Positions 3,068 through 42,129 of a stretch of 64,000 nucleotides of DNA are shown here, one piece after another. The notes under the pieces are model-generated. The model worked only from the letters and a program-made list of their open reading frames with translations. It searched no databases and was not told where the DNA came from. Numbering within the stretch: the first letter of the stretch is position 1; each line of letters opens with the position of its first letter. The position numbers were made by a program, and so were the translations under genes. Source of the stretch: a virus (lineage: Duplodnaviria > Caudoviricetes); the IMG/VR virus record IMGVR_UViG_3300043077_000092; one strand, given 5' to 3'.

Positions 3068-3101
3068 GCATTGTCACTCCTTTCATTTAACGATTACTTT
3101 A

Positions 3102-3151
3102 AAACAAGAAGAGGGTAAATAAATAGACATTATTCCGTCCTCTTCTTGTTT
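3102..3151 (-). terminator. Intrinsic terminator
   Basis: AAACAAGAAGAGG / CCTCTTCTTGTTT inverted repeat. Confidence 0.65.
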
Positions 3152-3183
3152 AGTTTGAACTTTGGAGATGGAATAGTCTCCCT

Positions 3184-13232: not shown

Positions 13233-13269
13233 TCAACGCACAGTAAACTGTAGAGAGGAGGCGGTGTAA

Positions 13270-20488: not shown

Positions 20489-21229
20489 TTATTCTAAGTC
20501 GTCTAATGTTTTTGGTAACTCCCATTTTGGGGGAGTCTTTACGTATTCTTTCCTATCCTCACTGAATATACTCTTTCCAGTTGAGGTATAATTTGTATTG
20601 GTTCTTGGAGGTCTTCTACTCTCCAAATCCTGCATTGTCTGTTCTACTGGCGTTTTACGCATTCCAATATATGATTGCAATAAGGTAATCCCAGCTTGAT
20701 ATAGGTCTATATGATCAAATAAATCATATATTCCCTCAAACTCATCGATTGTAAGGTCTACTTGATTTTCCTCTCTATTGATTGTCAAGTTTACTCCGGG
20801 GTATATATTGTTTTGTCTATCTCTTATGATAGTTGGAGATAGTCTTAACATTTGTCCCATTCCAAAAGAAATAATCACCCTATCAGAATTGTCCATGACA
20901 ACTTCTGTAATCCTCCCAAGATTATCATAACGATACAAATCGTCTCTTTGAAATATCCTATAGAACTTCTTTAATCCAAGTCTAAGTTGGAATATATTCC
21001 TTTGATTGATAACGATTTGATGATGTTTATCCCATGGGATATCCTTTGGAGTGTATCTGATTGTGATGTGTGATTTTGGATTCACACTAAAGAAATCACC
21101 CTTCTCGTTCGAATACTTTGAAAACGCATAATTCCCATTACTGCTAATTGATACAGTAAGTAGAATTTTCAATACAGGATCATTCGTCGGGACGGGTTCA
21201 TATAATTGACTACTAATTGATTGATTCAT
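20489..21229 (-). CDS. Hypothetical protein
   Basis: 246 aa, AAGGAGG RBS. Confidence 0.65.
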   Translation of the reverse strand: MNQSISSQLYEPVPTNDPVLKILLTVSISSNGNYAFSKYSNEKGDFFSVNPKSHITIRYTPKDIPWDKHHQIVINQRNIFQLRLGLKKFYRIFQRDDLYRYDNLGRITEVVMDNSDRVIISFGMGQMLRLSPTIIRDRQNNIYPGVNLTINREENQVDLTIDEFEGIYDLFDHIDLYQAGITLLQSYIGMRKTPVEQTMQDLESRRPPRTNTNYTSTGKSIFSEDRKEYVKTPPKWELPKTLDDLE

Positions 21230-25233: not shown

Positions 25234-25286
25234 GATAGAAAACCTCCTGTAATTCTTTGTATGTTGTTTTGCGTAATGCACTTCTT

Positions 25287-25293
25287 TAATATA
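25287..25293 (-). promoter_or_regulatory. Putative early promoter TATATTA
   Basis: TATATTAAAG upstream of the HU-like/thyX unit. Confidence 0.6.
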
Positions 25294-25349
25294 TGAATAT
25301 TACGGTTATTGGTTTGTTAAAGAACCAATGAAATCTTAACAGATATCCT

Positions 25350-26252
25350 CTATTTATCCGTTGGAGATAGTATAGCCGTTGTTAGCAATTCATACCATAT
25401 CTCTGGCTCTACTGTAAAGTCCATAATTCGGATATCGTCTATATCTATAGTTGAATCAATACTACGTAATCTTGCATCAACTGTTGGTACTAAGTATTCT
25501 GGTAAATGCTTTTCATGAAAGTTCGGAGCACATCGAATCATGTACTTCTTTAAACACTCTGGATCGCTTGGTTGCCTTATCGTATTTGCAATGACGTTAG
25601 CACTAAAGCTTATAAATAAATCCATTGACATTAGGAAATACTTGTCAGTGACAACGTGTCTATCTAAGCATAAACAAATCTCACCGCTTGTCTTACTAAA
25701 CGATGATGCCATTTGGAGCCAGTTGGTCAATCTCCCAACCAATACCATAAGGTTGGTCACACTACATAAATCATATGGTGATAGATGTTCAACTGGCATT
25801 AACCCCTTGTCATTGTTCATTGCTAATTTGAGCCACCCTAATTCGATTAATGGAACGAGTTCATGTTTACAGAACTCGTATAACTCTTCGGCGGTTCCGC
25901 TGTATGCAATCGATTGAACGGTAGCGGCATCAATAATAACGGCAGGAAACCCATATGCATCAACGTGAGAATATTCGTACTTAACATCTCTAATACGAAT
26001 TTCAACTACATGGATTGTATAGAATGCCTCTGTTTCCTCATCATACATAAGTAACTCTAAGGGCATTGTACCGTTACCAAGTAGGATTTTGATGAATACC
26101 TCCTGAAAGTAACCTATTGTGAGATTGTCTCTCATGAAGGTATTCTTTACAAATGAATAGCACTGAGCAACCAACGCCATAAGAGGATATCGTATTGATT
26201 CTTGTCCCTTTTTTTGAAGTCTCTTTATGTCGTCTTTATCCATTTCAATCAC
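25350..26252 (-). CDS. Hypothetical protein
   Basis: 300 aa ORF overlapping the ligase stop. Confidence 0.6.
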   Translation of the reverse strand: MIEMDKDDIKRLQKKGQESIRYPLMALVAQCYSFVKNTFMRDNLTIGYFQEVFIKILLGNGTMPLELLMYDEETEAFYTIHVVEIRIRDVKYEYSHVDAYGFPAVIIDAATVQSIAYSGTAEELYEFCKHELVPLIELGWLKLAMNNDKGLMPVEHLSPYDLCSVTNLMVLVGRLTNWLQMASSFSKTSGEICLCLDRHVVTDKYFLMSMDLFISFSANVIANTIRQPSDPECLKKYMIRCAPNFHEKHLPEYLVPTVDARLRSIDSTIDIDDIRIMDFTVEPEIWYELLTTAILSPTDK

Positions 26253-28521
26253 CCTTATACCCCCATTTGATTTTTGCCTCTTTAAGTTTTATCATGGGAG
26301 TATTCCATTTCTCTGCTTTTACCATTTTTGTAGATGGTTTCTCCATTCTTAAATCTGGTACAATCAAATATTCAGTTGATTTTGTGAAGGTATCATTAAC
26401 TTTAACTCCTATGGAATCTAAGAACTTTTCAAATTCCTCTGTATCATGAGTTGATGTAAAACATACAGAAGTTGTATACTTATCTTCCTCTGACTCATAC
26501 TGTCTGATATCTACATTACAACAGATATCTTCAATCAATGGTGTTTTCTTCTTAATACCTTCAATGATTGCACTTGCAGATTTAGGACCGATACCACCTA
26601 TCGAACACATCGGGATATAGAGTTCATCTAAGTTATCTAAATTTCCGATGATATTGAGCTTTCTACATACCTTCTCCATTGTCTTCAATCCAACTCCCGG
26701 AATACCAATACTTCCAAGAATCTGATGTTGATACAGAGACTTTGCCTCTGAAATCCCACTTAGGATTTTATCTACAGAAGTTTCACCCCAGCGTTCGAGC
26801 TTGCACATTTCATCTCTATGAAGATAAAGTCTATATAAATCTCCAATACCATTTAGCAGTCCTACATCGACTAACTGGACAACCTTTTCTATACCAAGTC
26901 CGCCTTTAATATTAAGCCGACCAATATAGTTTAAGATGTGACCAACTACTTTCGACGGACAATCAGGGTTGATACAAACCTCATCCTTTACAATACCTCC
27001 ACAAACTGGACACTCTGTTGGGAATTCAATCAGTGGATTATCTGTTTCTTTACAATCCTTTGATTTGAATATAGATGGTATGATATCATACCTTATAAGA
27101 ACTTCATCACCTTTATGCAAATGAAGTCTCTCAAGCTTTGCCTGATTTGATACCGTTACATTAGATATCGTATTCCCATTAATCACAATTGGTTTCAATC
27201 TTGCTACTGGAGTTAATCTTCCAACAATTGGACCAACTTGGAAATCAACATCTTCGATTGTAGTCTTCTCTTCCCCAGCAGGAAACTTAAATGCGACTTG
27301 GAACATATTCTTGTTATCTTTACGTCCAAGTACATTAATGAACGACTGATCGAGAATCGTAATAACAGCCCCATCACATGGAATACTCCAAGTATCTGCA
27401 AGTGTTCTGGTAAGTTCAATCTCTTTTCCCAGATATTTCACACAACTCTCAATGTCTGTCAAATCAATCGTATCCTCTCCTTCTGTATAGATATAATTGT
27501 AATGACCATTGAACTTTCCGATTGAATGCCAATCTTTCTCGACCGTTTCATCATCTAACTCAATTTCTTTTGACGTAGCAATCTGGAAACTCTGCATACG
27601 AAGAAACTGTACTTGTTTCTTATAGAATTCGTCTGGCTCTTCTGAATCTGGAACCTGATTACAAATAGACATAACAGCAGATCTTCTATTACATCTATTG
27701 AGGTTATATTCTTCCTTAAATAAATTGAACCTTTGTGAAGTCATGAATGTTTCTACTTTGATACCATAATCCAGCCCATCCTCCCAAATAGATGCGGGAA
27801 GTTTATCAAGCTTCATATTGGATGCCATTGAATTGGTCTTTATACCTTTCTCATCTTCATTTGGGAAGAACCTTGAGAACAGAGGAGTCAAATCTTTTCC
27901 AAGATTGTTATAAACGTCTCCTCTAGTTAATACGTGTTGGAACTCTTTTCCTGAACCCTCAATGATATGAGATACTCCGTCATACTTGATATCAACACTG
28001 ATTGGCACTTTGGTAAGGTCAACATTATCACCAGATGCTTTCATCTGTCTAACGACGTTATTCAAATACCACTCCAGAGATTTTCTAGTGTCTTTCTTAG
28101 GTATTTCGGTATCCCATAAGAAATGTACCTTTGCTAAAGAACCTCTAAGCTCTGGATACTTATGAGGTCTCGTATCAATTCCAATAATTACCGATGTCGG
28201 GGAGCCAATTGGTTGAGCTTCTCCGACATTAATCATTCGTTCTACGAGTTTATCATATAACTCATCTGAGATTATTGCTGGTATATCCATTTCGTTTTCT
28301 ACGTAGGAACAGATTTCAACAAACCAGCTAATCATTTCATTATACAGCACCCCCTTCTTATTCTGGGGGAGAACGTCTTCATCCAGTAGGGATTCACCAA
28401 TTTCTTCAGCATCATTTGCAAGCGACAGTACCTGTTGCTCAACAACATCACTGAGTTTATTGGTGATACAGAGATGAATACTAGATACTGTATCAATCAT
28501 CTTTTCAGTTATCATAATCAC
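26245..28521 (-). CDS. ligA: NAD-dependent DNA ligase
   Basis: ISDELYDKL, KYDG adenylation motif, TRGD, DGAVI, VAFKFP, GRLTPVA, CPVC...C...C zinc finger, HhH and BRCT-like tail; TATATTA at 28552-28558. Confidence 0.95.
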   Translation of the reverse strand: MIMITEKMIDTVSSIHLCITNKLSDVVEQQVLSLANDAEEIGESLLDEDVLPQNKKGVLYNEMISWFVEICSYVENEMDIPAIISDELYDKLVERMINVGEAQPIGSPTSVIIGIDTRPHKYPELRGSLAKVHFLWDTEIPKKDTRKSLEWYLNNVVRQMKASGDNVDLTKVPISVDIKYDGVSHIIEGSGKEFQHVLTRGDVYNNLGKDLTPLFSRFFPNEDEKGIKTNSMASNMKLDKLPASIWEDGLDYGIKVETFMTSQRFNLFKEEYNLNRCNRRSAVMSICNQVPDSEEPDEFYKKQVQFLRMQSFQIATSKEIELDDETVEKDWHSIGKFNGHYNYIYTEGEDTIDLTDIESCVKYLGKEIELTRTLADTWSIPCDGAVITILDQSFINVLGRKDNKNMFQVAFKFPAGEEKTTIEDVDFQVGPIVGRLTPVARLKPIVINGNTISNVTVSNQAKLERLHLHKGDEVLIRYDIIPSIFKSKDCKETDNPLIEFPTECPVCGGIVKDEVCINPDCPSKVVGHILNYIGRLNIKGGLGIEKVVQLVDVGLLNGIGDLYRLYLHRDEMCKLERWGETSVDKILSGISEAKSLYQHQILGSIGIPGVGLKTMEKVCRKLNIIGNLDNLDELYIPMCSIGGIGPKSASAIIEGIKKKTPLIEDICCNVDIRQYESEEDKYTTSVCFTSTHDTEEFEKFLDSIGVKVNDTFTKSTEYLIVPDLRMEKPSTKMVKAEKWNTPMIKLKEAKIKWGYKGD

Positions 28522-28595
28522 TTATTCCTCCTTATTCTTATGTCAAAGGCTTAATATATATCTAAAAGCGTGCATCCGCAATCCAAACGAATGCA

Positions 28596-28631
28596 AAAAA
28601 GAAACAGGTGTGAAGAACCACCTGTTTCTTT
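28596..28631. terminator. Intrinsic terminator
   Basis: AAAGAAACAGGTG / CACCTGTTTCTTT. Confidence 0.75.
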
Positions 28632-28654
28632 ATAATCCCATAACGAGGATTTTA

Positions 28655-30073
28655 TTAAGCTGCCGTACTTTTCTTGATTGCGGCAATACCATCTTTTAAG
28701 AATTGTGACGCCTGTCGTTCCTGAGCACCCCTCACGATGTACATCCCGACTTTGTATGGACGTTCGTCTTTGGACTCAATTGCCCGATTGACACGGTTGA
28801 TTTTGTCTTCGAGATTTTCGGTCATCTTGCAAACAGATTTCTTAGTTGCATCTTCATCGTTGTCATCGATCTGGGCATAAGTCAGCATTACCTTATAGAA
28901 GTCAATAACATCCATGTCTTTATCCAGTACCACTGCTCCAAGTGCCGAATAAATCAAGTCTGCATACATCGCAAACAACGTTACAGATGACTCATATGCA
29001 TCCGCTGAGGAATCGTTCAAATCGATGTCGGACATACCCATCATAGCTACCGACTTGATTAACCGATCGACTGAAACTCCCTTAACGGTTGACTTATGTG
29101 TAGCCGGTAACATGTTACTGAACACTCCCGCATAGAAGTCTACCGCATACTTCTGACTATCTGTCAGCTTGTCAAAACTGCTGTTTACATCATTATCAAC
29201 AATGATATTATTGATGATGGTAGAAACGTGAGGTCTCAGTTTCCCAGCGGTATCCTTAACTTCTTCGTCCGGAGTTGACTCATTAATCCTGAATACCATT
29301 TCACCGACACCTTCAATGAGTTTGGAGAAATCCTTTTCAACGATCTCATAAGTGTCGTTACCGGTAGTGGCGGTATCAGAATCATCGGACTTGCTTTCCA
29401 CATCCTTTGGTTCGGTAGACTCCTCAACAATGACAGGTTCCTTTGCAGGTTCCGTCGCCGTCTGATCCTGATGATGGTTGTTGGACTCTGGTTTCATCGT
29501 CTCGACCGATACATGATCGCCATTCTCATCTGTTGCGAAGTTTCCGTTGAAAGCTTCGATGAGAAGATACTTTGCGATGCTCAGTACGATCACCGATTCC
29601 ATCAAACTCTTAAGCTCACCAGACTTATCTTTGCTATTAAGCCCATCCTGATGAAGTTTCGTTGCAACCTTCTTCACAGACTCAACGTTCTCGGCAATAG
29701 TGATTACTTCACCGATAGTCTGATCGGACTGCTTTGCCTTGGCATAGTTGCCGAACAGAGTTTTCACGAAGAAATCCATCTTTTCATCCGCAGTCTTATT
29801 GCCGCGTTCTGTTCCATGGATGAACTCGTTGTACTCTTCAACCGATGAATCCAGAATCTCGATGAATGGGTTAATCTTGTTACCGATTGTTGCGACAATA
29901 TCCTTACCAATAACGTTGTCGCCGATAACGTCGGAAAGGATGCTTGAATGACCGAGATCTTTGATCATTCTTTTTGTAGGGTTTTTGAATTTTACAAGGG
30001 ACTCTACAAACCCCTTTGAGCCAGCGTCACTCATGATACGTTCCTTTAAGCTACTCATATTCTTCTCTGCCAT
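28655..30073 (-). CDS. Hypothetical helical protein with acidic central linker
   Basis: Start MAEKNM (30073) behind AAGGAGG; TATATTA at 30188-30194. Confidence 0.65.
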   Translation of the reverse strand: MAEKNMSSLKERIMSDAGSKGFVESLVKFKNPTKRMIKDLGHSSILSDVIGDNVIGKDIVATIGNKINPFIEILDSSVEEYNEFIHGTERGNKTADEKMDFFVKTLFGNYAKAKQSDQTIGEVITIAENVESVKKVATKLHQDGLNSKDKSGELKSLMESVIVLSIAKYLLIEAFNGNFATDENGDHVSVETMKPESNNHHQDQTATEPAKEPVIVEESTEPKDVESKSDDSDTATTGNDTYEIVEKDFSKLIEGVGEMVFRINESTPDEEVKDTAGKLRPHVSTIINNIIVDNDVNSSFDKLTDSQKYAVDFYAGVFSNMLPATHKSTVKGVSVDRLIKSVAMMGMSDIDLNDSSADAYESSVTLFAMYADLIYSALGAVVLDKDMDVIDFYKVMLTYAQIDDNDEDATKKSVCKMTENLEDKINRVNRAIESKDERPYKVGMYIVRGAQERQASQFLKDGIAAIKKSTAA

Positions 30074-30279
30074 GTTTTTATCCTCCTTATGGCTTATACT
30101 CTTCCTAAGCATATATACTTGGAAGGTTGAAATTTTTGTCTAGGGGAACATAGAAAATATTTCATCTCCTAGTTGTATCTACAAGTTTAATATAGTTCTA
30201 TAATATTTATGGATTGGATTTATAAACTAAAATAGAGTGATTGAGAGAATACCCAAATTCCTCAATCACTCTTATTCTT

Positions 30280-32556
30280 TTAAGACATATACATCTCAAT
30301 CTGGTCCTTTAACTCACCAGCAATCTTGTCAACAAACTCTTCAAAATTTCCGTCTGTACCAAGATATATCTCTCCAGACTCAAGACTATCCACACGAATC
30401 TTTGCCAGATCGTGAGCAATTACCTGTCGCATTTCGTCTGATGTACAGATGTACTTACGACCATTATAGATATGAGTCTTTACACCCGGTTCTGGAGTCA
30501 AATCCAAGATGTCATATTCCTCACTAAGCTCATAACCCATCTGAAGTAAATGAACCTCAAGCATCTCAACATTCTTATTCGTCATAAGACCAGTTACTGG
30601 TAAGTCATATACTCCTGCATAATTCTCCTGAAGAGCACTTCCAAGAGCCATTCTTGCAACTGGTGAATTTCTCTGGAACAAAAATTCCTTTACGATATAT
30701 TCCGGGTCCATAAACATCAGATTGTTCTCAGTCTCCTGTCTACCAAATCTAACTGGAGTATTGGAATGTCGTATGATAAATTTCTTTGCATCATCAGACT
30801 TATCCGGTAATCCATAGTTGTTAATTGGTCCAGTACTTCTTACAGACAATCCTTTCTTTGAAGACTGCTTCATCTTCATTACATGCATATATCCGACATA
30901 CTCATCCTTAATCTGCCTTACCCATCTCTGAGTATCTTTCTGCCAGAAATAGATACGATATGGCTTTAAGAAGTCGAATGTATCGTATGCCTCATTAACA
31001 CAATCCCACATCAGTTTCTTATGCCAGAATGACTCAATGTGAACATAGATACCATACTCCTCAATATACTCTTTAAAGTAAACCATCTTCTGAGTATCCG
31101 TCTTGTTCTCCTCGATATAATCCTGATAAACTCTGTCAGCCTGATCTTCATTGTAGATACGTAAGAACTTGAAGAATACATCTTCTTTCTCCTTAACGGT
31201 CTTTAATGTCTTTAGGTGTTCTCTTACCTGTCTTGCCTGCGCAGTTACAGACTGCTCATACAACTGGAAGATATTGAGTCGGTTTGGTACACCAAGAGAG
31301 TCGAATATAACATCAACCACTTCCCCATTTCCAAAGTGAGGCATTTCTCTTGTCGGACGTATCTGGGAAATAACTCCCTTATTACCATATCGTCCAACCA
31401 ACTTCTGACCTCTGGACAAACCAACCTTTCTCTTAACCAGAAAATAGATTACAATGTTAGAGAACACTGAGTTATTCTCATCCTTAATCTTATATCCCGT
31501 ATCATCACTCTTATCGAGTAATTCTTTTGCACGTTTGTTCCATTCTTTAACTGCTTTGGATACATTATAACCGCTATCGATAAGTTCCTGAGTAGCTTCA
31601 AGAACTCTCTGATAGAACGATATATCCATATCAATATACCGAAGAACCTGCTGGTTGTACTTTGTATTCGGTATCTGATCACGATGCTTATTGCAATAGA
31701 TGTCAATATCAACAATCGTTCCACTGTTATAGAAGTTCACGTCAGATGGCATTGACTGTTGCATATTTGCACTCTTCATATCAAAGAGTACCTGCGAATT
31801 ATTTAACATTTTCCAAATACATAATCGGTTATCCTTTATGTCTTCTCCGATATCCGGGAAGCATTTGTATACTTCTTCATCCCCATATGCATTACCGAGG
31901 AAATTGTTTTCGTTTAATGTTACCTTTACAAGTTCAACCTCTGTTGAGACAAATGATTTTGCAAATCTGTCTGATACGACAATTGCATCTTCAATCGTAT
32001 ACATATCAAGTCGATACATGAAGTTTACATTCTGCCCAAATCCATAGTTGTCAAACTTATCATATGATGTTGGTCTTGTAAGCGTTGTTCCTTTCTCAAG
32101 TACGTCTCCTTCTTTAAGGTTATCCAGTACGTGATGGTCATACTGAAATCCATATTTTTCAGGAAGGTTTTGTACATCCTGCTTATAAATCAAATCATAC
32201 TCATCTCTTTCTCTATTATAGAAGATAATGAGTGCAGGTTGAGTCTTACTGTCAATTTTTAGTTTGTCGAACTTCGGGATAATCTTCCATACTTCCAAAT
32301 CAGACTTGGCGATTACGTTATACGTGGAACGATGTCCAAACATATTTTCTGAGTTGGTGAATACATATGGAAACTCCGTATTCTCAACAACCACTCTCTG
32401 CAACTGATGATTAACATCCATGATGGTTCTGGATGAGTCAATGTATGCAGGGAATGTCAATGAACTGATACCAAGTATTGAGTTATCCCCCTCATACTGT
32501 TTCTGTTTCTCCTCCAACACCTGCTGAAGAAGAACTCTGCTTTGTGTTAAAGCCAT
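30280..32556 (-). CDS. rpoB: Phage multisubunit RNA polymerase, beta-subunit C-terminal part (probably non-virion RNAP)
   Basis: DSSRTIM..HQLQRV, EDAIVVS, GQKLVGRYGNKGVIS...MP...DVIFDSLGVPNRLN, SVRSTGP, PVRFGRQE. Confidence 0.93.
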   Translation of the reverse strand: MALTQSRVLLQQVLEEKQKQYEGDNSILGISSLTFPAYIDSSRTIMDVNHQLQRVVVENTEFPYVFTNSENMFGHRSTYNVIAKSDLEVWKIIPKFDKLKIDSKTQPALIIFYNRERDEYDLIYKQDVQNLPEKYGFQYDHHVLDNLKEGDVLEKGTTLTRPTSYDKFDNYGFGQNVNFMYRLDMYTIEDAIVVSDRFAKSFVSTEVELVKVTLNENNFLGNAYGDEEVYKCFPDIGEDIKDNRLCIWKMLNNSQVLFDMKSANMQQSMPSDVNFYNSGTIVDIDIYCNKHRDQIPNTKYNQQVLRYIDMDISFYQRVLEATQELIDSGYNVSKAVKEWNKRAKELLDKSDDTGYKIKDENNSVFSNIVIYFLVKRKVGLSRGQKLVGRYGNKGVISQIRPTREMPHFGNGEVVDVIFDSLGVPNRLNIFQLYEQSVTAQARQVREHLKTLKTVKEKEDVFFKFLRIYNEDQADRVYQDYIEENKTDTQKMVYFKEYIEEYGIYVHIESFWHKKLMWDCVNEAYDTFDFLKPYRIYFWQKDTQRWVRQIKDEYVGYMHVMKMKQSSKKGLSVRSTGPINNYGLPDKSDDAKKFIIRHSNTPVRFGRQETENNLMFMDPEYIVKEFLFQRNSPVARMALGSALQENYAGVYDLPVTGLMTNKNVEMLEVHLLQMGYELSEEYDILDLTPEPGVKTHIYNGRKYICTSDEMRQVIAHDLAKIRVDSLESGEIYLGTDGNFEEFVDKIAGELKDQIEMYMS

Positions 32557-32579
32557 AATTTTATCCTCCTATCATGTCT

Positions 32580-32951
32580 CTATAATTTCGTGACTTTAAA
32601 TTTAAATTCCTGATGTTTATATCCATATACATACAACGCACAATGGTCACACCCAACTGTATCATATATAACACATTTCTTACAAATGGTAGACCTGTAG
32701 TTGTTATCAGGGTCTTCATCAGTTCCCTTTTCATCTACTTTTGGTTTAGGTATATCCGTTTCTTCTTTAAATATATTTGATTCTTCCTGTTCTCTCTGAA
32801 TAGGACGTAACGGCTGACCCTGTACTACTTCCGTTACGGAAGTAGTAACTGGGGCTAATCTTTTTGTTGTAACCGAGGTCACCTCAGACTTTGTTTCATC
32901 TTTTTTTGTCTCATCGGGTAAAGGTGACTCGTGTACCATTATATCTATCAT
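32580..32951 (-). CDS. Hypothetical protein with C-terminal Cys cluster
   Basis: CKKC...CDHC; start MIDIMV (32951); TATATTA at 32978-32984. Confidence 0.55.
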   Translation of the reverse strand: MIDIMVHESPLPDETKKDETKSEVTSVTTKRLAPVTTSVTEVVQGQPLRPIQREQEESNIFKEETDIPKPKVDEKGTDEDPDNNYRSTICKKCVIYDTVGCDHCALYVYGYKHQEFKFKVTKL

Positions 32952-32999
32952 GTCTGGTCTCCTTTCTGTCATTACTTTAATATAGTTTCGACATAAGTA

Positions 33000-34253
33000 T
33001 TATTTCACTGAGAACATTTCTCTCATTAACTTCTTAGTTTCAAGCTTGCTTGAACCACCACGAATGATGTCCTTATCGTTTGATATATCTACAATAGGAA
33101 TTAAGTTCATCAGTGGTTCCCTGCACTCTGTGAACAATGCTCTTATGAGGTCAGGCTTATCTGCAAACTCCTTTATGATATATCTGGTATCGAACTTCAC
33201 CTCAGGAGTAGAAGTAAAGTAGCAACCCGGATTTCTTCCAGAGATTAATCCTTTTTCCTTTGCAAATCTCATCAGAGTAATTCTTGAGTCAAATCCAGAC
33301 TCCTGAACAAATTCCATTGTAGTTGAGAAACCACCCTTTGATGTACGAGACTTAATGACATAAGCCTCTGTTGGAACTCCATTCCAACCGTTGACATCTT
33401 CTGTCTTAATATCATCTTTTGATGTAAGTGGTTTAAAGTAGATAATGGAAGATGACAATAACTTTATCTTGTCTCCGCCTGACATATACTTCCCCGATGG
33501 CATAAACGTCATCTGTTTTGGTTTCTGCATACCAGTCATAGTTGGCATTGCATCACCCAAGTGATTGATTACGAACACGTTGATATTGTACCGATACATA
33601 TAGTCCAATGCATTTCTAAAAAATACACCGTTATATATAGCACTTCTACTGCCAGAGGTTAATCCATTAATCATATCAGTAGCCTCTTTCTCTGACATGA
33701 ATTTCATAAGAGAGTCAATGATAATAACCGTTGGAACATAGTAACGATACTCATTTCCCCAGATATCGTGCTGACCTGTATTGTACTTTGCAGTCTCACC
33801 CTTCGCCTCTTTCTCATTGGCAATCTCAATAATCTCTGCAAGTACATTCTCCCACGTACAGTTATCTTTCTCTATATTATAACAAGCCGCAATCTTCTCC
33901 TCGTCCCAGCCACTTACAGCCTGAACACGAGCATAACTTGTACTCTTCTCTCCATCTCTGTGAATAACATAAGCTTCTTCTCCAAATGGTTCAACGATAT
34001 TACAAGCCGCCTGAATTGCCGCTGTTGTTTTACCACTTGAAGTCTGACCAGAAAAGATAGTAAATGTACCAGCAGGAATTCCGACATGAATATCTTTGAT
34101 AATCTCTCCGTCTGGTCTTTTTCTAATATATACTGCACCAAGCATCTGATCTAATACGGGAAACCCCATAGAATATGAGATGGAAATCTCATTACTTGAG
34201 AATAAACCCTTCTTTTCATTCTTTTCTTTTAACTCTTGTAACGCACTTGGCAT
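33000..34253 (-). CDS. recA: RecA/UvsX-like recombinase
   Basis: SMGFPVLDQMLG, GQTSSGKTT Walker A, DGEKS, IIIDSL Walker B, VINHL, SGGDKIK. Confidence 0.88.
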   Translation of the reverse strand: MPSALQELKEKNEKKGLFSSNEISISYSMGFPVLDQMLGAVYIRKRPDGEIIKDIHVGIPAGTFTIFSGQTSSGKTTAAIQAACNIVEPFGEEAYVIHRDGEKSTSYARVQAVSGWDEEKIAACYNIEKDNCTWENVLAEIIEIANEKEAKGETAKYNTGQHDIWGNEYRYYVPTVIIIDSLMKFMSEKEATDMINGLTSGSRSAIYNGVFFRNALDYMYRYNINVFVINHLGDAMPTMTGMQKPKQMTFMPSGKYMSGGDKIKLLSSSIIYFKPLTSKDDIKTEDVNGWNGVPTEAYVIKSRTSKGGFSTTMEFVQESGFDSRITLMRFAKEKGLISGRNPGCYFTSTPEVKFDTRYIIKEFADKPDLIRALFTECREPLMNLIPIVDISNDKDIIRGGSSKLETKKLMREMFSVK

Positions 34254-34406
34254 AACTTAAAGTCTCCTTTCGTTGTTTATTTCTAAATAGATGTATTTTA
34301 CATTGTTATTCTTAAGACAATACAAAAAAAAGAAACAGAGAAGAGTATCGGTAATTAACCGAACCCTTCTCTGTAATATATCTAAAAATTGCGGGATCAC
34401 TGATTC

Positions 34407-35348
34407 TTAACGCTGTCCGTTACGTCTGAAGTTCTTACCACTTCCACCTTTGTTGGAAGTGTTGTCATTTCTGTACTTGGAGGGGAACTTTACACTTGGG
34501 TTTCCGTTTCCACGGGAGTATCCGTTGTTGTTACCACCTCTGCCGTTTCCATTCTTTGCGTTAAAGTTTCCTTTGCCGTGTTTCTGATGATGGTCTTCAT
34601 CTCTGGACTCTTCAGATCTTCTTGCTGAAGTACCCTTCTCGGACTTCTCGTTTAAGATACGCTCGGATTCATCAAGATAATCCTTTGCAGTCTGGGCATC
34701 AACCTCAACAATCTGGTTCTTCACAACCTTGTTCTCGGTTCTTGATCCTAACTGGATTCCGCCGTAGATCTTCTCACCCTGCTCAATGTACATGTAAACA
34801 GGGAACTTGAGATTTGACCAGATGGGCCACTTAACCATAATAAGGGCGATCTGATAATCATCAGTGGATACGATAACCGGCTTACCTGCAAGATTTCTGC
34901 CGTCTACTCTTACGTAAATATTCTCGTCCCCTTCATCCTTAGGGCAAATAAGAACGATCATATCTCTCGGGTATCTCTTTGGTTTGTCACCATCTTCCGC
35001 ATTCTCTTCTACGAGATTCACGTTGATTGGTACAGTAGGATTACCATCCTTTGTCTCGCAGACAAGAGCAATCTTCTCACCCTTTACATAAGCTGCGATT
35101 TCAGTCGGTTTCTCAGCCAAAGCTGTCGATGCCGCATTGTCCACCTTGTATAAGGTATTTGTAACCTTTCCTACATTCTCGATGGAATGTCTGATACTTG
35201 TGGCAAGTCCCGGAACGCTTGACTTTAAGATGTCTACTTCCTCATCATTGGGAAGTATAAGAGTAACCCCACAGTCGTCATTTTCTGTTCTCATGCAAAT
35301 CCCAAAATTGGAATTTGGTTCATCTGTTAAATTTTTGATGAATAGCAT
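34407..35348 (-). CDS. Hypothetical protein with G/N/R/K-rich disordered C-terminal tail
   Basis: GGAGG RBS; tail KNGNGRGGNNNGYSRGNGN...NFRRNGQR; AACA-N6-TAA at 35401-35413. Confidence 0.7.
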   Translation of the reverse strand: MLFIKNLTDEPNSNFGICMRTENDDCGVTLILPNDEEVDILKSSVPGLATSIRHSIENVGKVTNTLYKVDNAASTALAEKPTEIAAYVKGEKIALVCETKDGNPTVPINVNLVEENAEDGDKPKRYPRDMIVLICPKDEGDENIYVRVDGRNLAGKPVIVSTDDYQIALIMVKWPIWSNLKFPVYMYIEQGEKIYGGIQLGSRTENKVVKNQIVEVDAQTAKDYLDESERILNEKSEKGTSARRSEESRDEDHHQKHGKGNFNAKNGNGRGGNNNGYSRGNGNPSVKFPSKYRNDNTSNKGGSGKNFRRNGQR

Positions 35349-35534
35349 TTAATATTACCTCCAAATATGTATGTTTTTGCCAAGTACCTACCATTGGCAA
35401 TTAATTTTCTGTTATATTACTGATAAAATATTATACTGAATCCCCCGTATAGTTCTATCAACTTAGTGAAAAAATATTTCCCGAGTGCATTAAATTCACA
35501 CTCGGGAAATAAGTTCCCATATAGAAATTGTTCG

Positions 35535-36728
35535 TTACGCCAGATAGGTCATCGCCTCTGAATCCTCATCCAATACCTGCATCAAGCCCTTCTTCACGTT
35601 ATCGAACTTAGATGCATCTGTCGATACGAAGATTGTCTTGAGTGCGGTATCATGCTTACGAATAATCTTTACATAAGTCAGGACGTAAGCGATATCCTTG
35701 ATGTCATACTCATCCAACTTGGTGTAAAGCATCTTGATGAAGTCCTTATATACGGCTTCCTGAACATCCGATTCAAATGTTTCTTTAACCGGTGTTGTCA
35801 GGTATTTACCGATAACTTTAAGTGCGGTCTTGCTCTTACCGAAGAACTTTGTATAGAGCATCCCCTGAACCTCATAGTTGAGAACATCCATATTGTCCTC
35901 TGCGTGACTCAGCATCTTATCAAGGAATCTTCCATAGAACGCATCAATGTTCGAACCGTTCCATTCAGTTCCAACCATCGGCATTGCAATGATAAGATCC
36001 AGTGCTAAGTCTTTGGTAACACCCGTCTCCTCAACGATCTCATTGATCTCAGGCTTCCACATACGTGGGAGAATAACCGTTGCATACTTGCGGACTGTAT
36101 CTCCGTGCATAGCCTCGTATCTGGTCTCCAGAGCAATTGACAATGCAAATGCAATGTTTCTCCAGATTCTGTCATAGGTTCCATCCTCTGACCAAACCCC
36201 AGACTCTAACGTACTGTCAAGTGCGTTTGCAAACTGGGATGTACAGATAGTCTTGATTAGGCGGTTCGCTGCATCAATATACATCGGACCATTCTTCTGA
36301 TTGTAGTATCCTTTGATATGCTTAATCGCATCCGGAAACTCATCGATAACAACATCTCTCATTCTCTTGAAATCCTGACTGCTGTCTGTGAAGTCATCGC
36401 AGAATGCATTGATGACACCGGCTCTGCGATCATCTCTCTCCTGAAGAACCTGCTCAGTCTTATCAGACTTGTCCTCATTATTCATAGACTCTCTGATTTC
36501 ATCTGTCAGATAAGACGATCTCATGAACTGATAATCATCATTCGAATATCCTCTCTTGCGATCGTTCTGGTTGTTGTTTCCGTTGTTGTTCTGGTTGTTC
36601 TGAAAGAACCCGCCATTGTTACCGTTCTGACGGTTGTTATTCTTCCGTCCGTTGTTGTTACCATTGTTACCTCTGCGATTGTCAAACGATTCTCCATCCA
36701 GTGTAACTTTTCCATCCATTAAACTCAT
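35535..36728 (-). CDS. Hypothetical helical protein with N/Q/G-rich disordered N-terminus
   Basis: RRGNNGNNNGRKNNNRQNGNNGGFFQNNQNNNGNNNQND; AAGGAGG RBS; TATATTA at 36822-36828. Confidence 0.7.
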   Translation of the reverse strand: MSLMDGKVTLDGESFDNRRGNNGNNNGRKNNNRQNGNNGGFFQNNQNNNGNNNQNDRKRGYSNDDYQFMRSSYLTDEIRESMNNEDKSDKTEQVLQERDDRRAGVINAFCDDFTDSSQDFKRMRDVVIDEFPDAIKHIKGYYNQKNGPMYIDAANRLIKTICTSQFANALDSTLESGVWSEDGTYDRIWRNIAFALSIALETRYEAMHGDTVRKYATVILPRMWKPEINEIVEETGVTKDLALDLIIAMPMVGTEWNGSNIDAFYGRFLDKMLSHAEDNMDVLNYEVQGMLYTKFFGKSKTALKVIGKYLTTPVKETFESDVQEAVYKDFIKMLYTKLDEYDIKDIAYVLTYVKIIRKHDTALKTIFVSTDASKFDNVKKGLMQVLDEDSEAMTYLA

Positions 36729-36836
36729 TTCTTATTACCTCCTTAAAATTTGATTCTGTATGCTTTTAACTTATTTTAGGACGAGATGGAAACGGTTTTC
36801 CATCTCGCCTATGTATTCTTTTAATATAGGTCTGAA

Positions 36837-38084
36837 TTACTTCCCAGCATTCTTCTTATCCATAAAACGCTTGAGTAAATCTTCCTTTGAAGCATCCCCA
36901 TCCTTTGATGCATTGACGGCTGATGTCTCGTCGGCAAAACTCTGCTTTGCTGTAACTGATTTAAGCTTTGAGCTTTCCTCAATCTTGCTAAGCTTTGAAG
37001 TTGCTGCCTTTCTTGATAAGATGCTTTCTTCCAACTTCTTGCTTCTGTTGATGATGCGGTCAATAACCATTGCAGGTTCGGTTAAGCCCGATAATACAAC
37101 AGCGATTTTTCCCTCATCCTCATCGGAGAAGTTTGTAACATCCTTGATATGCTCGCCAAATGTTTTCTGCAAATCATTCTTGATGGCACTCTTAACCGAA
37201 TCGAATTCCTCACCGAGTGAGTACATCAATGCTGATGCTAAGATTTCCTTATCAGAAACCAGTTCTGCATGAGCAGACTCTGTATCGATATGGTTCTTTA
37301 AGGTTTTAATCACAGAACCATCTTCAATGTCTGCCATCTCAAGACCTTCCATAGAATCGATAACGATTCTGCCTGCAACCGATAATACTGTAAGCATATC
37401 ACGCTGGTCGATACCACCTGTTCTTGTCTCGCTAATGAAATCGCCCTGAAGAACTCTCAGGTCATTTACAAACGATTCGTTTACTTTTGCCGCTGCCTTG
37501 TTTGGCGACATCTTGTCAGCAAAACGATTGTTATCGTAGATCATATAGGTCGGGTTCAATGCTCCGATTTCCTTAAGCCAAGACTTTGTACCCTCGAACG
37601 CTGCCGAACCTTCGTCAGAGAAGGGTAACACACCTGCAACGATGAAAACCTTATTCTCGTACATAGACTGGAGTAACTCCAACAACTCTGTTGAAGAACC
37701 TGATCCATAACCGCCGCCAGTACTGGTGGCAATAACGATAACGTCATTGTTCTCGATAACTTTGATAAACTTGTTATCAAGTACGATTCCGGAATCTGCA
37801 AGGAAGAACTGCTTTGCACGATCTCTGTCCTTTCCTGTACCTTTCCCATCACCTACTACAATTTTTACTACTTTCGGGCAAGTGATCAGATCCAAATCTT
37901 TCTGGGAACCATTGATAGCTACACTATCTAACCCCAACTCTTCAGATGCTGATGATGCCAACATGGAACCGCAATTACCTGTTCCGATAACCGCAAGTCT
38001 TAACAACTTCTCCTGCTCAACAGGAGTACTTGCTACTACTGTTGGTACAGTTGTTGTACCTGTTGTTGTTTCCTTTTCACTCAT
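36837..38084 (-). CDS. Tubulin/FtsZ-family GTPase (PhuZ/TubZ-like)
   Basis: VIGTGNCG (T1), INGSQKDL, GKGTGKDR (T3), STGGGYGSG (T4), LPFSDEG, YDNN, IDQRDM (T7); start MSEKET (38084). Confidence 0.9.
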   Translation of the reverse strand: MSEKETTTGTTTVPTVVASTPVEQEKLLRLAVIGTGNCGSMLASSASEELGLDSVAINGSQKDLDLITCPKVVKIVVGDGKGTGKDRDRAKQFFLADSGIVLDNKFIKVIENNDVIVIATSTGGGYGSGSSTELLELLQSMYENKVFIVAGVLPFSDEGSAAFEGTKSWLKEIGALNPTYMIYDNNRFADKMSPNKAAAKVNESFVNDLRVLQGDFISETRTGGIDQRDMLTVLSVAGRIVIDSMEGLEMADIEDGSVIKTLKNHIDTESAHAELVSDKEILASALMYSLGEEFDSVKSAIKNDLQKTFGEHIKDVTNFSDEDEGKIAVVLSGLTEPAMVIDRIINRSKKLEESILSRKAATSKLSKIEESSKLKSVTAKQSFADETSAVNASKDGDASKEDLLKRFMDKKNAGK

Positions 38085-38138
38085 GATAAATTTACCTCCA
38101 TAATATGTATGTTTCTTGGTATGTCTAAAGACCAAGAG

Positions 38139-38212
38139 TCCTATTAATCGGATTCGAACCGATTTTCACAGCACTTAATTTGATGTGAATACTCCATTTA
38201 GATTTTAATAGG
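38139..38212 (-). ncRNA. tRNA-like element (pseudo-tRNA/tRNA mimic) in the tubulin gene leader
   Basis: 7-bp acceptor CCTATTA/TAATAGG + A discriminator; perfect T-arm ATCGG-TTCGAAT-CCGAT; GG in D-loop; aberrant anticodon arm TTCACA-13nt-TGTGAA; no encoded CCA. Confidence 0.7.
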
Positions 38213-38392
38213 CTATATGAAATTGATTACTCCATATAATCGAGAGGCAACCCTTATTGCTAAGAATTACCTCCCATTATAAGTGTACGGGTGATGAACC
38301 CCGTGATGTATACCCATTGTCGCCGTACATAAGAAACATACAGAATTTGGAGTTCGTTTGTTTAACTCATCACGGTTATTTCATCATCAGTT

Positions 38393-38399
38393 TAATATA
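38393..38399 (-). promoter_or_regulatory. Putative early promoter TATATTA, ~310 nt upstream of tubulin start
   Basis: TATATTAAAC. Confidence 0.6.
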
Positions 38400-38474
38400 T
38401 AACTAAAACAAAAGTTGATAGAGTATGGTAACTGATTTTTCTGGTATTACTCAGTCACCATACTCTAAATCCAT

Positions 38475-38675
38475 TTATTCTTCCGTTGTATATCCAACCA
38501 TAGTTGGTCCAACCATAGCCCCCGGAATGGACTCAATACCTGCAACTTCCATTGTTGCTGCAAGACCCGGAAGTGTTCCGCTAGTAGCTACTCCAGCGTT
38601 TGTATACATATTCTGGTTATCATTTGGTACGTTGTTTCCACTACATCCGTAGTGGTTGTCAAATGCATTACTCAT
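38475..38675 (-). CDS. Small hypothetical protein
   Basis: Start MSNAFD behind AAGGAGG, overlapping the upstream stop. Confidence 0.5.
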   Translation of the reverse strand: MSNAFDNHYGCSGNNVPNDNQNMYTNAGVATSGTLPGLAATMEVAGIESIPGAMVGPTMVGYTTEE

Positions 38676-39240
38676 CGATAGATCCTCCTTCATCATTTTG
38701 ATTATCTGCTTGTTCACTCATACGTTTATTAAACTCCCGCATGATATTTTCTGAAGCATCTTTCATAAATGAATTGCTGTCACCTGATGTAACAAATGGA
38801 ACCTGACCCGGTTTTGCCAATTGCTTATTGAGTAAAGCAACGCCTTCTGATTTCTTCTCGGCATTTTTCTTATCAATAGCTTTCTTAGCCTCTGTATCAT
38901 ACACGATAAATGCATTTACAACAGGTATTCCATAATGTTCAGCACTAATGGTTGCGCCGATGTTATCAATGATACCATGCCAATTTAATGAGACCTTAAG
39001 CATCTGGTCAATATAGACCGTTGCCGTTATGTCTCCATTAGCGATACGTCTGATATTGTAAGCCTCCCCCATTTTATTGTCAGAATCCACAACCAATTGT
39101 TCTTTTGGATTATGGAGATACTGATATATGATAGGAATCGATTTGTTTCTTTTACAAGCACGCAGAAGAGCAGTCAATACATCCTTATTCATAGTCTTTT
39201 GTTGTTTAGCCGATCTTATGACGACATTATCTACAATCAT
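38668..39240 (-). CDS. Hypothetical protein
   Basis: ATGA overlap with upstream gene. Confidence 0.6.
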   Translation of the reverse strand: MIVDNVVIRSAKQQKTMNKDVLTALLRACKRNKSIPIIYQYLHNPKEQLVVDSDNKMGEAYNIRRIANGDITATVYIDQMLKVSLNWHGIIDNIGATISAEHYGIPVVNAFIVYDTEAKKAIDKKNAEKKSEGVALLNKQLAKPGQVPFVTSGDSNSFMKDASENIMREFNKRMSEQADNQNDEGGSIDE

Positions 39241-39986
39241 TTCTTTTCTTCTCCCTTCTTGATGGTAGAGATTAAGAGATTGCTTGGAGTTATCAAGTCC
39301 GTTCCAAGACCAGCAGTCATATAGTAAGTATCAATGGTTTCAAGAGCAAGTCTATCTTCAATACCTGCCTGAGATTCAATATCCTCTAATGAACATGAAC
39401 CTGTCTTGGCAATTTGAGCATAAGCATAATTCTTACGCTGTAAACCATCTGCTCTAAAACCATTAAGTTCTCTCAATATGTTAGTTGCACCAATAACTGT
39501 GAGGGCTATATTCTCCTGATCAGACGAACGACCATTCTTATCGTGACCAACTACCTGACCAGTAGTAGCAGAACGCTCATCAATATGAGTTGACGTACTG
39601 TTCTTTTTGGTGTTGGTCTGCTCCATTCTCTTATCTATATAGTAACCAGTGATACATTTTTCCTTTGTCACCATTGGATTTTCCTGAGATTTTGATACGT
39701 GAGGTAATACAACATATTCTTCCAGTGGTATACCAAGAACCTTTGCCGCTTTCTCGATTTGCTCAATTTTAAGCTCACGTTCGAATTCTTTAATCTCCAA
39801 GGTGAAATCAATGTTTTCATCATCAAACATGCATTTCATAAAATTCTCAAACTTTGCATCTGACATGGTACCGAAAAGTTTTTTATATCTATTCGTATTA
39901 GTACCACTAGGGTCTAATGCATCCATTACAGAATATACCAATTGTTCCGCCTTTGCACGTTTTGACATGTCTATTTTGTAGTGCAT
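39237..39986 (-). CDS. Small RNA polymerase subunit matching the extreme beta C-terminus (probably virion RNAP)
   Basis: TGYYIDKRMEQTNTKKNS...RSATTGQVVG..KNGRSSDQENIAL..IGATNILREL..FRAD parallels RpoB GYMY..KL.H...KIHARS...TQQP..G...GQRFGEME..AL...GA...L.E.LT..SD. Confidence 0.75.
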   Translation of the reverse strand: MHYKIDMSKRAKAEQLVYSVMDALDPSGTNTNRYKKLFGTMSDAKFENFMKCMFDDENIDFTLEIKEFERELKIEQIEKAAKVLGIPLEEYVVLPHVSKSQENPMVTKEKCITGYYIDKRMEQTNTKKNSTSTHIDERSATTGQVVGHDKNGRSSDQENIALTVIGATNILRELNGFRADGLQRKNYAYAQIAKTGSCSLEDIESQAGIEDRLALETIDTYYMTAGLGTDLITPSNLLISTIKKGEEKK

Positions 39987-39987
39987 A

Positions 39988-40416
39988 CTATCCCTCCTTA
40001 CGCATTTCTAAGACATTATACCCTTGTGGGCTACGAGTATAAATATCAGGGTGGTAATAAAGGTAGTTGTGACAGATAAAATCCTTTTCTTTCTGACCAA
40101 TAGTTATACTGGTACAATTGATATTATCTCCTACTTTTTCCGTAATTACAACAACTGCCGTTCTATCATCAATTGGATCATAGAAAACATCAGTTGTATT
40201 GGGCGTACTGTAAAACCAATATACCATTTCTGGTGTCGGTTCACCCAAAAAAATCCGTTCTCGACCAAAAACCTGTCGGAAAGGGGCGTTTACCGCCCCA
40301 TTCTGTTTAACTACCATAACTCTCGCATTCCTCCCATCAATCTGTGAGGTTTCCCTGTGACATGGTAAGTAGCGTTGTGAACTGCTTACTAATATAGATT
40401 CCATGCTTGGTCTCAC
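39988..40416 (-). CDS. Hypothetical protein
   Basis: ORF in operon; start uncertain. Confidence 0.5.
   Translation of the reverse strand: MRPSMESILVSSSQRYLPCHRETSQIDGRNARVMVVKQNGAVNAPFRQVFGRERIFLGEPTPEMVYWFYSTPNTTDVFYDPIDDRTAVVVITEKVGDNINCTSITIGQKEKDFICHNYLYYHPDIYTRSPQGYNVLEMRKEG
40016..40028 (-). promoter_or_regulatory. Internal late promoter CACA-N6-TAA directly upstream of the putative virion RNAP subunit gene
   Basis: CACAAGGGTATAA, ~30 nt before ATG 39986. Confidence 0.6.
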
Positions 40417-40750
40417 GTATTGCCAGTTGGTTTAGCGTGGAGCCTTTTTCTACTTTCCCGTGAAGGACAATTGCATATTTACGTTTTCCTCCATTTGCAA
40501 CTGCATTTGAAATACAGTTCTTATCTTCTTTGGTGAGCTCTGTCAACTCACAATCAAAGATGAAAATGGATGCGTTCTTGTAATCATAAAATATATCAAG
40601 AACATCTGCATCCGGAAAGACCAACTCTAAGTCTTTCATGATTTTCCTGTGCTCTGCACTGGTGGTGTTTTGAAATACCATAACTAACCCGAGCTTATCG
40701 CTCGTAATGGTGATTCCGTTACCATCATTTCTGATAATCTTTAGCTTCAT
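40337..40750 (-). CDS. Hypothetical protein
   Basis: AAGGAG RBS; TATATTA at 40781-40787. Confidence 0.6.
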   Translation of the reverse strand: MKLKIIRNDGNGITITSDKLGLVMVFQNTTSAEHRKIMKDLELVFPDADVLDIFYDYKNASIFIFDCELTELTKEDKNCISNAVANGGKRKYAIVLHGKVEKGSTLNQLAIRETKHGIYISKQFTTLLTMSQGNLTD

Positions 40751-40855
40751 ATTAATAGCTCCTTTCTGTATGTAATGGCTTAATATATTCGCTAATTTTA
40801 CATTAACAAATACGATGGTATAGACGGAATATTTCTATCCGTCTATACCAAATAT

Positions 40856-42055: not shown

Positions 42056-42087
42056 CTCCTCTCTTTATTCTTCTGTGGAAATAGACA

Positions 42088-42129
42088 AAAAAGAGTAAAG
42101 GGAGATTATCTCATCCCCTTTACTCTTTC
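42088..42129. terminator. Intrinsic terminator
   Basis: AAAGAGTAAAGGG / CCCTTTACTCTTT. Confidence 0.75.

Follow-up and report, generated by a model that had tools for sequence, protein, structure and literature searches.

Does the leader of a phage tubulin gene act on its own messenger RNA (mRNA) only, or does it also provide an antisense RNA that addresses other genes of the same phage? The question is raised by a 64,000-nucleotide (nt) stretch of DNA of a virus of the Caudoviricetes (IMG/VR record IMGVR_UViG_3300043077_000092), called the window in the following, in which a tubulin/FtsZ-family gene of 415 amino acids (aa) (36837..38084; PF00091, E=4.8e-11) is preceded by a structured leader of ~300 nt (38085..38385) that reaches from a predicted early transcription start site (TSS), G at 38385, to the tubulin start codon. 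All features of the window discussed here lie on its minus strand unless stated otherwise. An initial annotation had noticed that one segment of this leader is antisense to the ribosome-binding site (RBS) regions of four other genes, and had proposed a regulon governed by a trans-acting small RNA (sRNA). Below we show a conserved, co-varying bipartite complementarity between one stretch of the leader and modules, made of a short box and a Shine-Dalgarno (SD) sequence, in the 5' untranslated regions (UTRs) of tubulin and three to five other genes. The reading that we favour is that this stretch forms the anti-RBS arm of an early RNA, which would mask tubulin in cis and a small regulon in trans; judged from sequence comparison, we give this reading as a whole a probability of roughly one half.

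The anti-RBS segment and its complementary sites

The anti-RBS segment comprises 22 nt (38331..38352), lies ~35 nt into the tubulin leader and consists of CUCC, a 6-nt spacer and UGUAUGUUUCUU. It has two complementary blocks: CUCC matches the SD sequence GGAG, and UUCUGUAUGUUU matches a CAUACA box situated a few bases upstream. The partner in cis is the RBS module of tubulin itself (AAGAAACAUACA, spacer and GGAG; 38096..38117), and when the segment was compared with this region, read from 38117 to 38096, 19 of 22 positions were complementary. Within the window the single near-copy of the segment is its reverse complement, at 38096-38117, and genome-wide the leader holds its sole intergenic sense copy.

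The four antisense matches listed by the initial annotation were all recovered, and its remark that the mRNAs concerned carry CATACA shortly 5' of GGAG proved correct, since (A)CATACA is found 3-17 nt 5' of GGAG in each of the four minus-strand genes. Two of these genes, encoding 397 aa (start 36728) and 313 aa (start 35348), have a hairpin at the 5' end of the UTR upstream of their box and SD (CAUACAGAAU at 36739..36762 and AAACAUACA at 35359..35376, respectively). In a 137-aa gene (start 40750) the module ACAUACAGAAAGGAG (40759..40773) is located at the predicted 5' end of an early mRNA, and the predicted start, A at 40773, is the first base of the box. The fourth gene encodes 261 aa (start 25233) and carries AACAUACA as box and SD at 25244..25265.

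The predicted duplex with the segment is strongest for the 5' UTR of tubulin (-22.0 kcal/mol; 12 bp + 3 + 5, bulged), followed by those of the 313-aa gene (-20.4 kcal/mol; mainly 9 + 8 bp), the 137-aa gene (-18.8 kcal/mol; 10 + 4 bp), the 397-aa gene (-18.5 kcal/mol; 13 bp over the box, with the SD 10 nt further on) and, as the weakest of the five, the 261-aa gene (-16.3 kcal/mol). UUCUG, which is invariant within the segment, is complementary to CAGAA in the UTRs of the 137-aa and 397-aa genes; the UTR of tubulin itself has no CAGAA.

Counts within the single genome give a divided answer. At positions -40 to -8 of start codons CATACA was observed 7 times against 1.6 expected (P about 1e-3), and CATACA followed by GGAG ranks 2 among 60 permutations of its letters. 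Among all hexamers at -40 to -8, CATACA comes 87th, behind SD and A/T-rich words, and over the whole window ACATACA is not over-represented (15 found vs 12.5 expected). For this genome taken alone, the evidence of a departure from chance is modest. The ranking of 5' UTRs against shuffled controls, which the initial annotation had suggested in the style of IntaRNA, did not discriminate: the five UTRs rank 1, 3, 5, 6 and 10 of 196 by duplex energy with the segment, and shuffled segments that keep CUCC equalled the mean energy of the top five in 72 of 200 trials. Since pairing energy in this genome is no better than chance, we have not counted the energy ranking as support.

Conservation in relatives and a change of specificity

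Close relatives were represented by syntenic loci with a tubulin identity of 60-90% (L134, L135, L001, L136, L137, L138, L139, L140 and L175) together with the whole genomes G001 and G002; box counts out of nine refer to the window and eight relatives. All leaders of the close relatives keep the core UCUGUAUGU of the segment, nearly all keep the adjoining anti-SD block (CUCC or a close variant), and the flanks diverge. Likewise, AAAAACAUAC(A/U) before the tubulin SD is kept in all of them, and the leader sequence in between varies. The box is retained in the tubulin UTR in 9/9 genomes, in that of the 137-aa ortholog in 9/9 (as C/UAUACAG), of the 397-aa ortholog in 7/9 and of the 313-aa ortholog in 5/9, as well as in one of two 261-aa orthologs, compared with 0/9 for five neighbouring control genes.

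Among 125 reciprocal-best ortholog triplets from three whole genomes, CATACA is common to at least two of the three UTRs in six groups, where ~0.5 would be expected by chance (arithmetic from the triplet counts), and it is the top-conserved hexamer apart from SD, early-promoter and A/T-rich words. The six groups are tubulin, the 137-, 397-, 313- and 261-aa genes and a gene for a ~1000-aa virion structural protein (phrog_20751), which lies outside the window at 137807-140516 of the G000 contig and in which a conserved late-promoter motif AACA-(6N)-TA, a perfect match, overlaps the ACAUACA box. The conservation of CATACA in orthologous UTRs, proposed as a check at the outset, is therefore borne out both by the nine genomes and by the triplets.

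Two observations concern the boxes themselves. In the present genome the ~1000-aa virion gene has a second copy, UAUACAGAAAGGAG, at its SD. One of the relatives (L136, 11359-13702) contains two paralogs of the 397-aa gene, the second of which carries a tandem-duplicated GCAUACAGAA box in its 5' UTR.

When the UTRs of the eight relatives are ranked against the leader segment of the respective phage, the orthologous ones come first or close to it. With the UTRs defined beforehand, pairing with the own segment gave -19 to -21 kcal/mol compared with -9 to -13.5 kcal/mol for shuffles, of which only 0-2 in 300 were as good. When leaders and UTRs were exchanged between genomes, the genome's own pair was favoured for tubulin and for the 313-aa gene, in a test that over-counts related genomes. 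Taken across genomes, the complementarity of segment and box appears to be clearly beyond chance.

The clearest co-variation in trans is provided by L169, a relative with 53% tubulin identity and a leader without the tRNA mimic described below. Its segment is changed to a CUUCCUUUC...UUAAGUAUAUC type, and the UTRs of tubulin and of the 397- and 137-aa orthologs carry GAUAUACUUAA next to the SD. With its own segment these three UTRs gave -23.1, -21.2 and -19.8 kcal/mol, respectively, whereas the remaining 13 UTRs averaged -9 kcal/mol and reached -13.5 kcal/mol at best. The cross pairs, a window-type segment on the three L169 UTRs or the L169 segment on UTRs of the window, gave -9 to -11 kcal/mol in either direction. 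An unbiased sliding window along the L169 leader selected the same place, ~50 nt from the start, with each of the three UTRs. Two non-tubulin UTRs as strong as these were not obtained with any of 1000 shuffles in which the anti-SD block was kept, and the segment forms 11 contiguous bp with the UTR of the 397-aa ortholog. L169 is a case in which one leader and three UTRs, two of these on other mRNAs, have switched specificity together. A conserved seed with conserved sites in several mRNAs, and a compensatory change of seed and target (one independent event), are both found here and are features of trans-acting antisense sRNAs.

More distant relatives differ in what they keep. L171 (tubulin identity 57%) has no leader but a gap of 58 nt, L141 (45%) has a leader without the segment, and in both the box is missing from the other UTRs. 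In L170 (49%) the leader contains a variant of the segment and the other UTRs match it partly. L176 and L177 (49% and 44%) have a short leader with a cis anti-RBS ~20-30 nt from the start and no clear other targets.

Collectively, the part of the regulon proposal that stands is a conserved, co-evolving complementary set including the L169 switch, as an antisense regulon predicts. Trans action itself would be the best explanation for the co-evolution of the boxes on other mRNAs; folding predicts a segment that is locked in cis, as described in the following.

Leader fold, promoters and alternative explanations

From 5' to 3' the tubulin leader region contains the terminator of the upstream gene, the sequence TATATTA, two GAUGA-type strands that pair with two CAUCAC strands, and the segment; these are followed by a crossing helix, a GC hairpin, a tRNA-like element, a covarying hairpin, an A-run with the box, and the SD. 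The crossing helix, GUACGG/CCGUAC, to which RNAfold is blind, crosses the two GAUGA/CAUCAC helices and shows three compensatory changes, consistent with a pseudoknot or with alternative folds. For the GAUGA repeats, a hammerhead or a C/D box was considered and dropped, because those positions covary as helices. The GC-rich mid-leader hairpin (38242..38275) is fully covarying and may be a leaky terminator. It has a U-rich tail in 6 of 10 relatives and a weak one in the window, so a separate short early RNA is plausible for part of the family only. The tRNA-like element (38139..38212) has an acceptor stem and a T arm with compensatory changes, and neither ARAGORN nor the Rfam tRNA model recognises a tRNA in it. 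The leader belongs to no Rfam family, and the window gave no Rfam match at gathering score.

To interpret these elements the transcription machinery of the phage has to be considered. The window represents the reverse strand of one contig of 220,062 bp (37% G+C), a jumbo genome in which multisubunit RNA polymerases are encoded with split beta-subunit fragments (phrog_3233). The nearest isolates of the beta fragment, with 33-40% identity, are AR9-like Bacillus phages, a Listeria phage and Staphylococcus jumbo phages, and the RNA polymerases are of the AR9-type split kind. The early promoters of AR9 read AAATATATATTAT-(6N)-G and the late ones AACA-(6N)-TA/G (PMC5312081); in the latter, AACA at positions -11 to -8 is essential and position +1 strongly important (PMC5449584). 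Upstream of genes of the present phage we observed ATATATTA 22 times (1.9 expected), [CT]CACA-(6N)-TA 18 times (2.2 expected) and AACA-(6N)-T[AG] 33 times (11 expected). The start of the leader has the features of an AR9-type early promoter as recognised by the virion RNA polymerase, namely a TATATTA core (38393..38399) that is enriched upstream of genes and has a purine 8 nt downstream, and this is the predicted promoter of the leader.

A second putative promoter lies within the tRNA mimic. TCACA-(6N)-TA (38176..38188; predicted TSS A at 38176) corresponds, as far as its sequence tells, to the late-promoter consensus of the family. Together with a following A, TCACA-(6N)-TA(A) accounts for the loop and the 5' strand in the “anticodon arm” of the mimic, and it is invariant, 96-121 nt before the tubulin ATG, in 10/10 leaders. 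AR9 has continuously expressed genes with both early and late promoters (PMC5312081), and by analogy tubulin is probably served by both as well. Part of the conservation of the mimic may thus operate at the DNA level, and since the late-promoter-like site is inside the mimic, the tRNA-like fold could form in early read-through RNA only. These results also bear on the suggestion of the initial annotation that a 5' fragment is released by cleavage before the tRNA mimic. This suggestion is unsupported, because L169, with the clearest co-variation in trans, has no mimic and because the “anticodon arm” is the invariant late-promoter consensus.

The early TATATTA and the late [AC]ACA-(6N)-TA, often extended to TCCACA, recur at orthologous positions in most relatives (e.g. 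those of the window at 35402-35413 and about 42075-42090). The recurrence of these motifs suggests that the two-polymerase programme of AR9 holds across the family.

Technically, the reading that we favour works as follows. A structured early RNA would be made from the AR9-type early promoter upstream of tubulin and would carry the segment as an anti-RBS arm. In transcripts that read through into tubulin the segment would fold back over 230 nt and mask the tubulin box and SD in cis. Transcripts from the late promoter inside the leader would start downstream of the segment, and would therefore lack the mask and be translatable. In trans, the leader RNA or a truncated version that ends at the mid-leader hairpin would pair with the other mRNAs carrying box and SD and block binding of the 30S subunit. 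The outcome would be a small post-transcriptional regulon centred on tubulin. Repression as the direction of the effect, and the timing, are guesses.

The cis step is the firmer of the two. RNAalifold pairs UGUAUGU with ACAUACA across ~270 alignment columns, a helix that covariation neither supports nor contradicts because both sides are invariant. Folding of single full leaders predicted the cis helix in 8/9 genomes, with a probability of about 1 (at least 0.9) in seven of them, and the SD is predicted to be paired. We consider it likely that the tubulin RBS is masked in those early transcripts that read through. The trans step, i.e. that the same RNA, free or truncated, pairs with other mRNAs and blocks initiation, has in our judgement an even chance; here we infer a free form of the RNA, pairing in vivo and a repressive effect.

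Several results weigh against the reading as a whole. Folding of the full-length leader predicts cis pairing of the segment (probability unpaired ~0.01), and even in an isolated 5' fragment of 170-190 nt the segment is predicted to be partly engaged in a weak local hairpin (probability unpaired 0.1-0.4). With the segment predicted to be locked on the tubulin RBS, a free trans-acting form has to be assumed. Such a short RNA is not evident in the genome of the window, since its mid-leader hairpin has a poor U tail and was not called as a terminator. In the close clade, the UTRs of the 137- and 397-aa genes showed no advantage of own over cross pairs (p=0.35 and 0.10, respectively). The relatives do not count as independent in phylogenetic terms, a clear switch of specificity was found only once, and L176 and L177, the two most distant relatives with leaders, have a cis anti-RBS and no visible trans set. 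To these must be added the result with shuffled segments above.

The same observations give room to an alternative that the initial annotation had already named, i.e. that a phage protein or other factor reads the CAUACA box on six mRNAs as a translational operator or enhancer, that the segment only masks tubulin in cis and that its match to the other UTRs is incidental. The prediction that is robust is cis pairing, the cis anti-RBS is more widespread and persists in the distant relatives without a trans set, and the segment is unavailable in the full-length leader. Moreover, products of the box genes include R/G/N-rich tails that could bind RNA, and a changed protein specificity combined with a cis mask would yield the observed co-variation of boxes and mask, which must be held against trans pairing. 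Searches with the 137-, 261-, 313- and 397-aa proteins in Pfam, PHROGs and the ESM Atlas returned no family or function, and no member of the box genes emerged from them as a candidate for such a protein. It also appears that the segment is often more complementary to other UTRs than to that of tubulin, as with the 11 bp in L169 and, in the window, the 10 bp formed with the 137- and 397-aa UTRs by way of CAGAA. L171 and L141, which are without the segment, are also without any shared box, and a protein operator needs one more component than direct pairing does. In the light of this we regard a protein operator as possible, though rather unlikely.

If the box were instead a DNA element, it could be a variant promoter or initiator for the non-virion RNA polymerase, akin to the AACA-(6N)-TA/G of AR9, and the leader copy a site in reverse orientation. 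AR9-type promoters are clearly used in the genome, the boxes of the tubulin, 313-aa and 261-aa genes begin with AACA, and the box of the ~1000-aa virion gene overlaps its perfect and conserved AACA-(6N)-TA. This virion gene is, however, the only one for which AACA and the conserved T and A/G at -1/+1 are found; for most boxes of the 137-aa gene, the 397-aa gene and tubulin they are not. Most 137- and 397-aa boxes have no AACA, which is essential in AR9 (PMC5449584), and the tubulin boxes have no conserved TA at -1/+1 in 8/9 genomes, whereas the TA of true late promoters nearby persists in almost all relatives examined. In the 137-aa gene and in the L142 ortholog of the 261-aa gene, a start implied by the box would be situated within the SD or beyond it. 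For these reasons we place the boxes inside 5' UTRs.

Other promoters can be recognised in front of them. The 261-aa gene has an early TATATTA at 25293-25287 with a predicted TSS, G at 25279, 15 nt before the box. In the 397-aa gene an early-promoter-like TATATTA of its own (36828-36822) precedes the 5' hairpin, which in turn precedes the box. A late AACA-(6N)-TA at 35413-35402 stands before the hairpin and box of the 313-aa gene, and this promoter recurs in place in the relatives examined. For both kinds of site the distance to the transcription start has been established in AR9. Because the boxes are downstream of predicted transcription starts, the box is better taken as an RNA element than as a promoter. 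Furthermore, the conserved CUCC beside the reverse copy has no role at the DNA level, and no conserved open reading frame (ORF) follows the reverse copy. A promoter function of the box is, in our view, very unlikely. A role for the box as part of the early promoter had also been considered and was rejected, as other TATATTA sites have no box; a small plus-strand ORF behind the reverse copy of the module was set aside because it is not conserved in L001.

A processing or stability site is equally hard to defend. An endonuclease cut at the box would give the six mRNAs a common mature 5' end after a protective hairpin, unrelated to the segment except for the cis mask on tubulin. The boxes in the tubulin, 313-aa and 397-aa UTRs do come after a covarying hairpin and an A-rich run, and the predicted 5' end of the 137-aa mRNA coincides with the first base of its box. 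No known nuclease motif was matched, and this explanation leaves unaccounted for both that the L169 segment tracks the boxes of other genes and that the box is lost where the segment is absent, so that we consider it improbable. A MazF-type UACAU site was among the candidates rejected, being found in some boxes only. Finally, pairing by chance and composition, in which A/U-rich UTRs with strong SDs pair with any CUCC-bearing A/U-rich segment, agrees with the shuffling result and with the count of ACATACA in the window but is contradicted by the ortholog conservation, the tests with pre-defined orthologs and the L169 switch, and is most improbable.

A more elaborate form of our anti-RBS-arm reading may be mentioned. 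The 5' domain, in which three covarying helices cross one another and a local hairpin competes, could be a pseudoknot that switches the seed between being hidden, being locked in cis on tubulin and being free to silence a dispersed gene set, centred on tubulin, in trans; the internal late promoter would bypass it, and the code of seed and tag would differ by lineage. This proposal is a tentative one, and we would sooner doubt it than rely on it.

A few observations on the phage and its relatives remain. A nucleotide search of public phage records with the region and a protein search with the tubulin found no near relative, and the matches of the RNA polymerase beta fragment are distant. In metagenomes ~120 tubulin relatives were found, many on contigs of 218-245 kb, and the lineage appears to be a sizeable uncultured phage family. 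When metagenome and viral collections were scanned with a 16-mer from the leader, nearly all matches were chance ones, and the one related match was a known IMG/VR contig. The gene order of tubulin, a ~390-aa protein with an N/G-rich N-terminus and a ~310-aa protein with an R/G/N-rich C-terminal tail (34407-38084 in the window) recurs in nearly all relatives, even at a tubulin identity of 44%. L139 has a gene for an IS605 OrfB/TnpB (Cas12f-like) protein at 2612-3895, amid gyrase B and topoisomerase IV genes that are annotated piecewise, and L169 has genes for a PemK-type toxin domain and an RNase HII (21001-21173 and 12413-13483) close to the tubulin block.

Significance and comparison with known systems

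In AR9 gene timing is described by early and late promoter classes (PMC5312081), and in jumbo phages with their own RNA polymerases timing has so far been explained by promoters alone. A post-transcriptional layer would be added if our reading is true. One leader-borne RNA with a private tag would then address tubulin and a handful of strictly syntenic genes, and the 137-, 397-, 313- and 261-aa proteins would be flagged as functional partners of the phage tubulin. The internal late promoter would be a built-in bypass, and lineage-specific pairs of seed and tag should be orthogonal, testable and reusable as parts. Should the switchable-seed version hold, it would be a translational timing circuit owned by the phage, of a kind not described for jumbo phages. 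In the literature on jumbo phages we found no paper describing such a leader; in the differential RNA sequencing (dRNA-seq) study of ΦKZ no sRNA was detected, and phage-encoded sRNAs were said to need functional characterisation (PMC8244752).

The proposed regulon has parallels in several systems, each of which covers a part of it. Translational repression of a gene set is the task of RegA-type proteins of phage T4, the system to which the protein operator considered above would correspond, and here, too, a short sequence common to the RBSs of several phage mRNAs would define a translational regulon; the difference is that a conserved complementary RNA is present and that no RegA-like protein was found. 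Listeria SreA and SreB are trans-acting RNAs derived from 5' UTRs or riboswitches, and the Firmicute sRNAs RNAIII and RsaE/RoxS have C-rich anti-SD seeds. The present case resembles them in a leader-borne RNA with a C/U-rich seed directed against the SD regions of several mRNAs, and differs in that RNA and targets are phage-encoded, in that the seed includes a private tag outside the SD, and in that no family membership was found. Cis-acting anti-SD leaders are known as translational expression platforms, e.g. the self-inhibitory rpoS leader. Like these, the tubulin leader is predicted in 8/9 genomes to carry an anti-SD that pairs over a long distance with the RBS further down in its own mRNA; unlike them, the same stretch matches a private tag on other mRNAs, and an internal late promoter would bypass the mask.

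The nearest analogue appears to be the c4 antisense RNA of phages P1 and P7 (immI), which is cut by RNase P from the leader of its own operon and has two short pairing elements, one of which covers the RBS, with a specificity that differs between the phages (PMC5320573). There are differences: the c4 model (RF01695) gave no Rfam match in the window at gathering score nor on the leader at E<=10, the present phage is a jumbo phage of lytic type whereas c4 belongs to the immunity locus of a temperate phage, the two blocks form one linear stretch here instead of two loops, and the targets are spread over at least 15 kb with the tubulin gene among them. The link of c4 to tRNA-type processing by RNase P has a possible counterpart here in the covarying tRNA-like acceptor stem and T arm, which L169 lacks. 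The two cases share a phage RNA that is encoded upstream of, and co-transcribed with, genes that it controls (here as a proposal), and two short blocks, one of which occludes the RBS while the other would confer specificity through an upstream sequence. Finally, as in c4, matched changes in RNA and target set the specificity apart between related phages.

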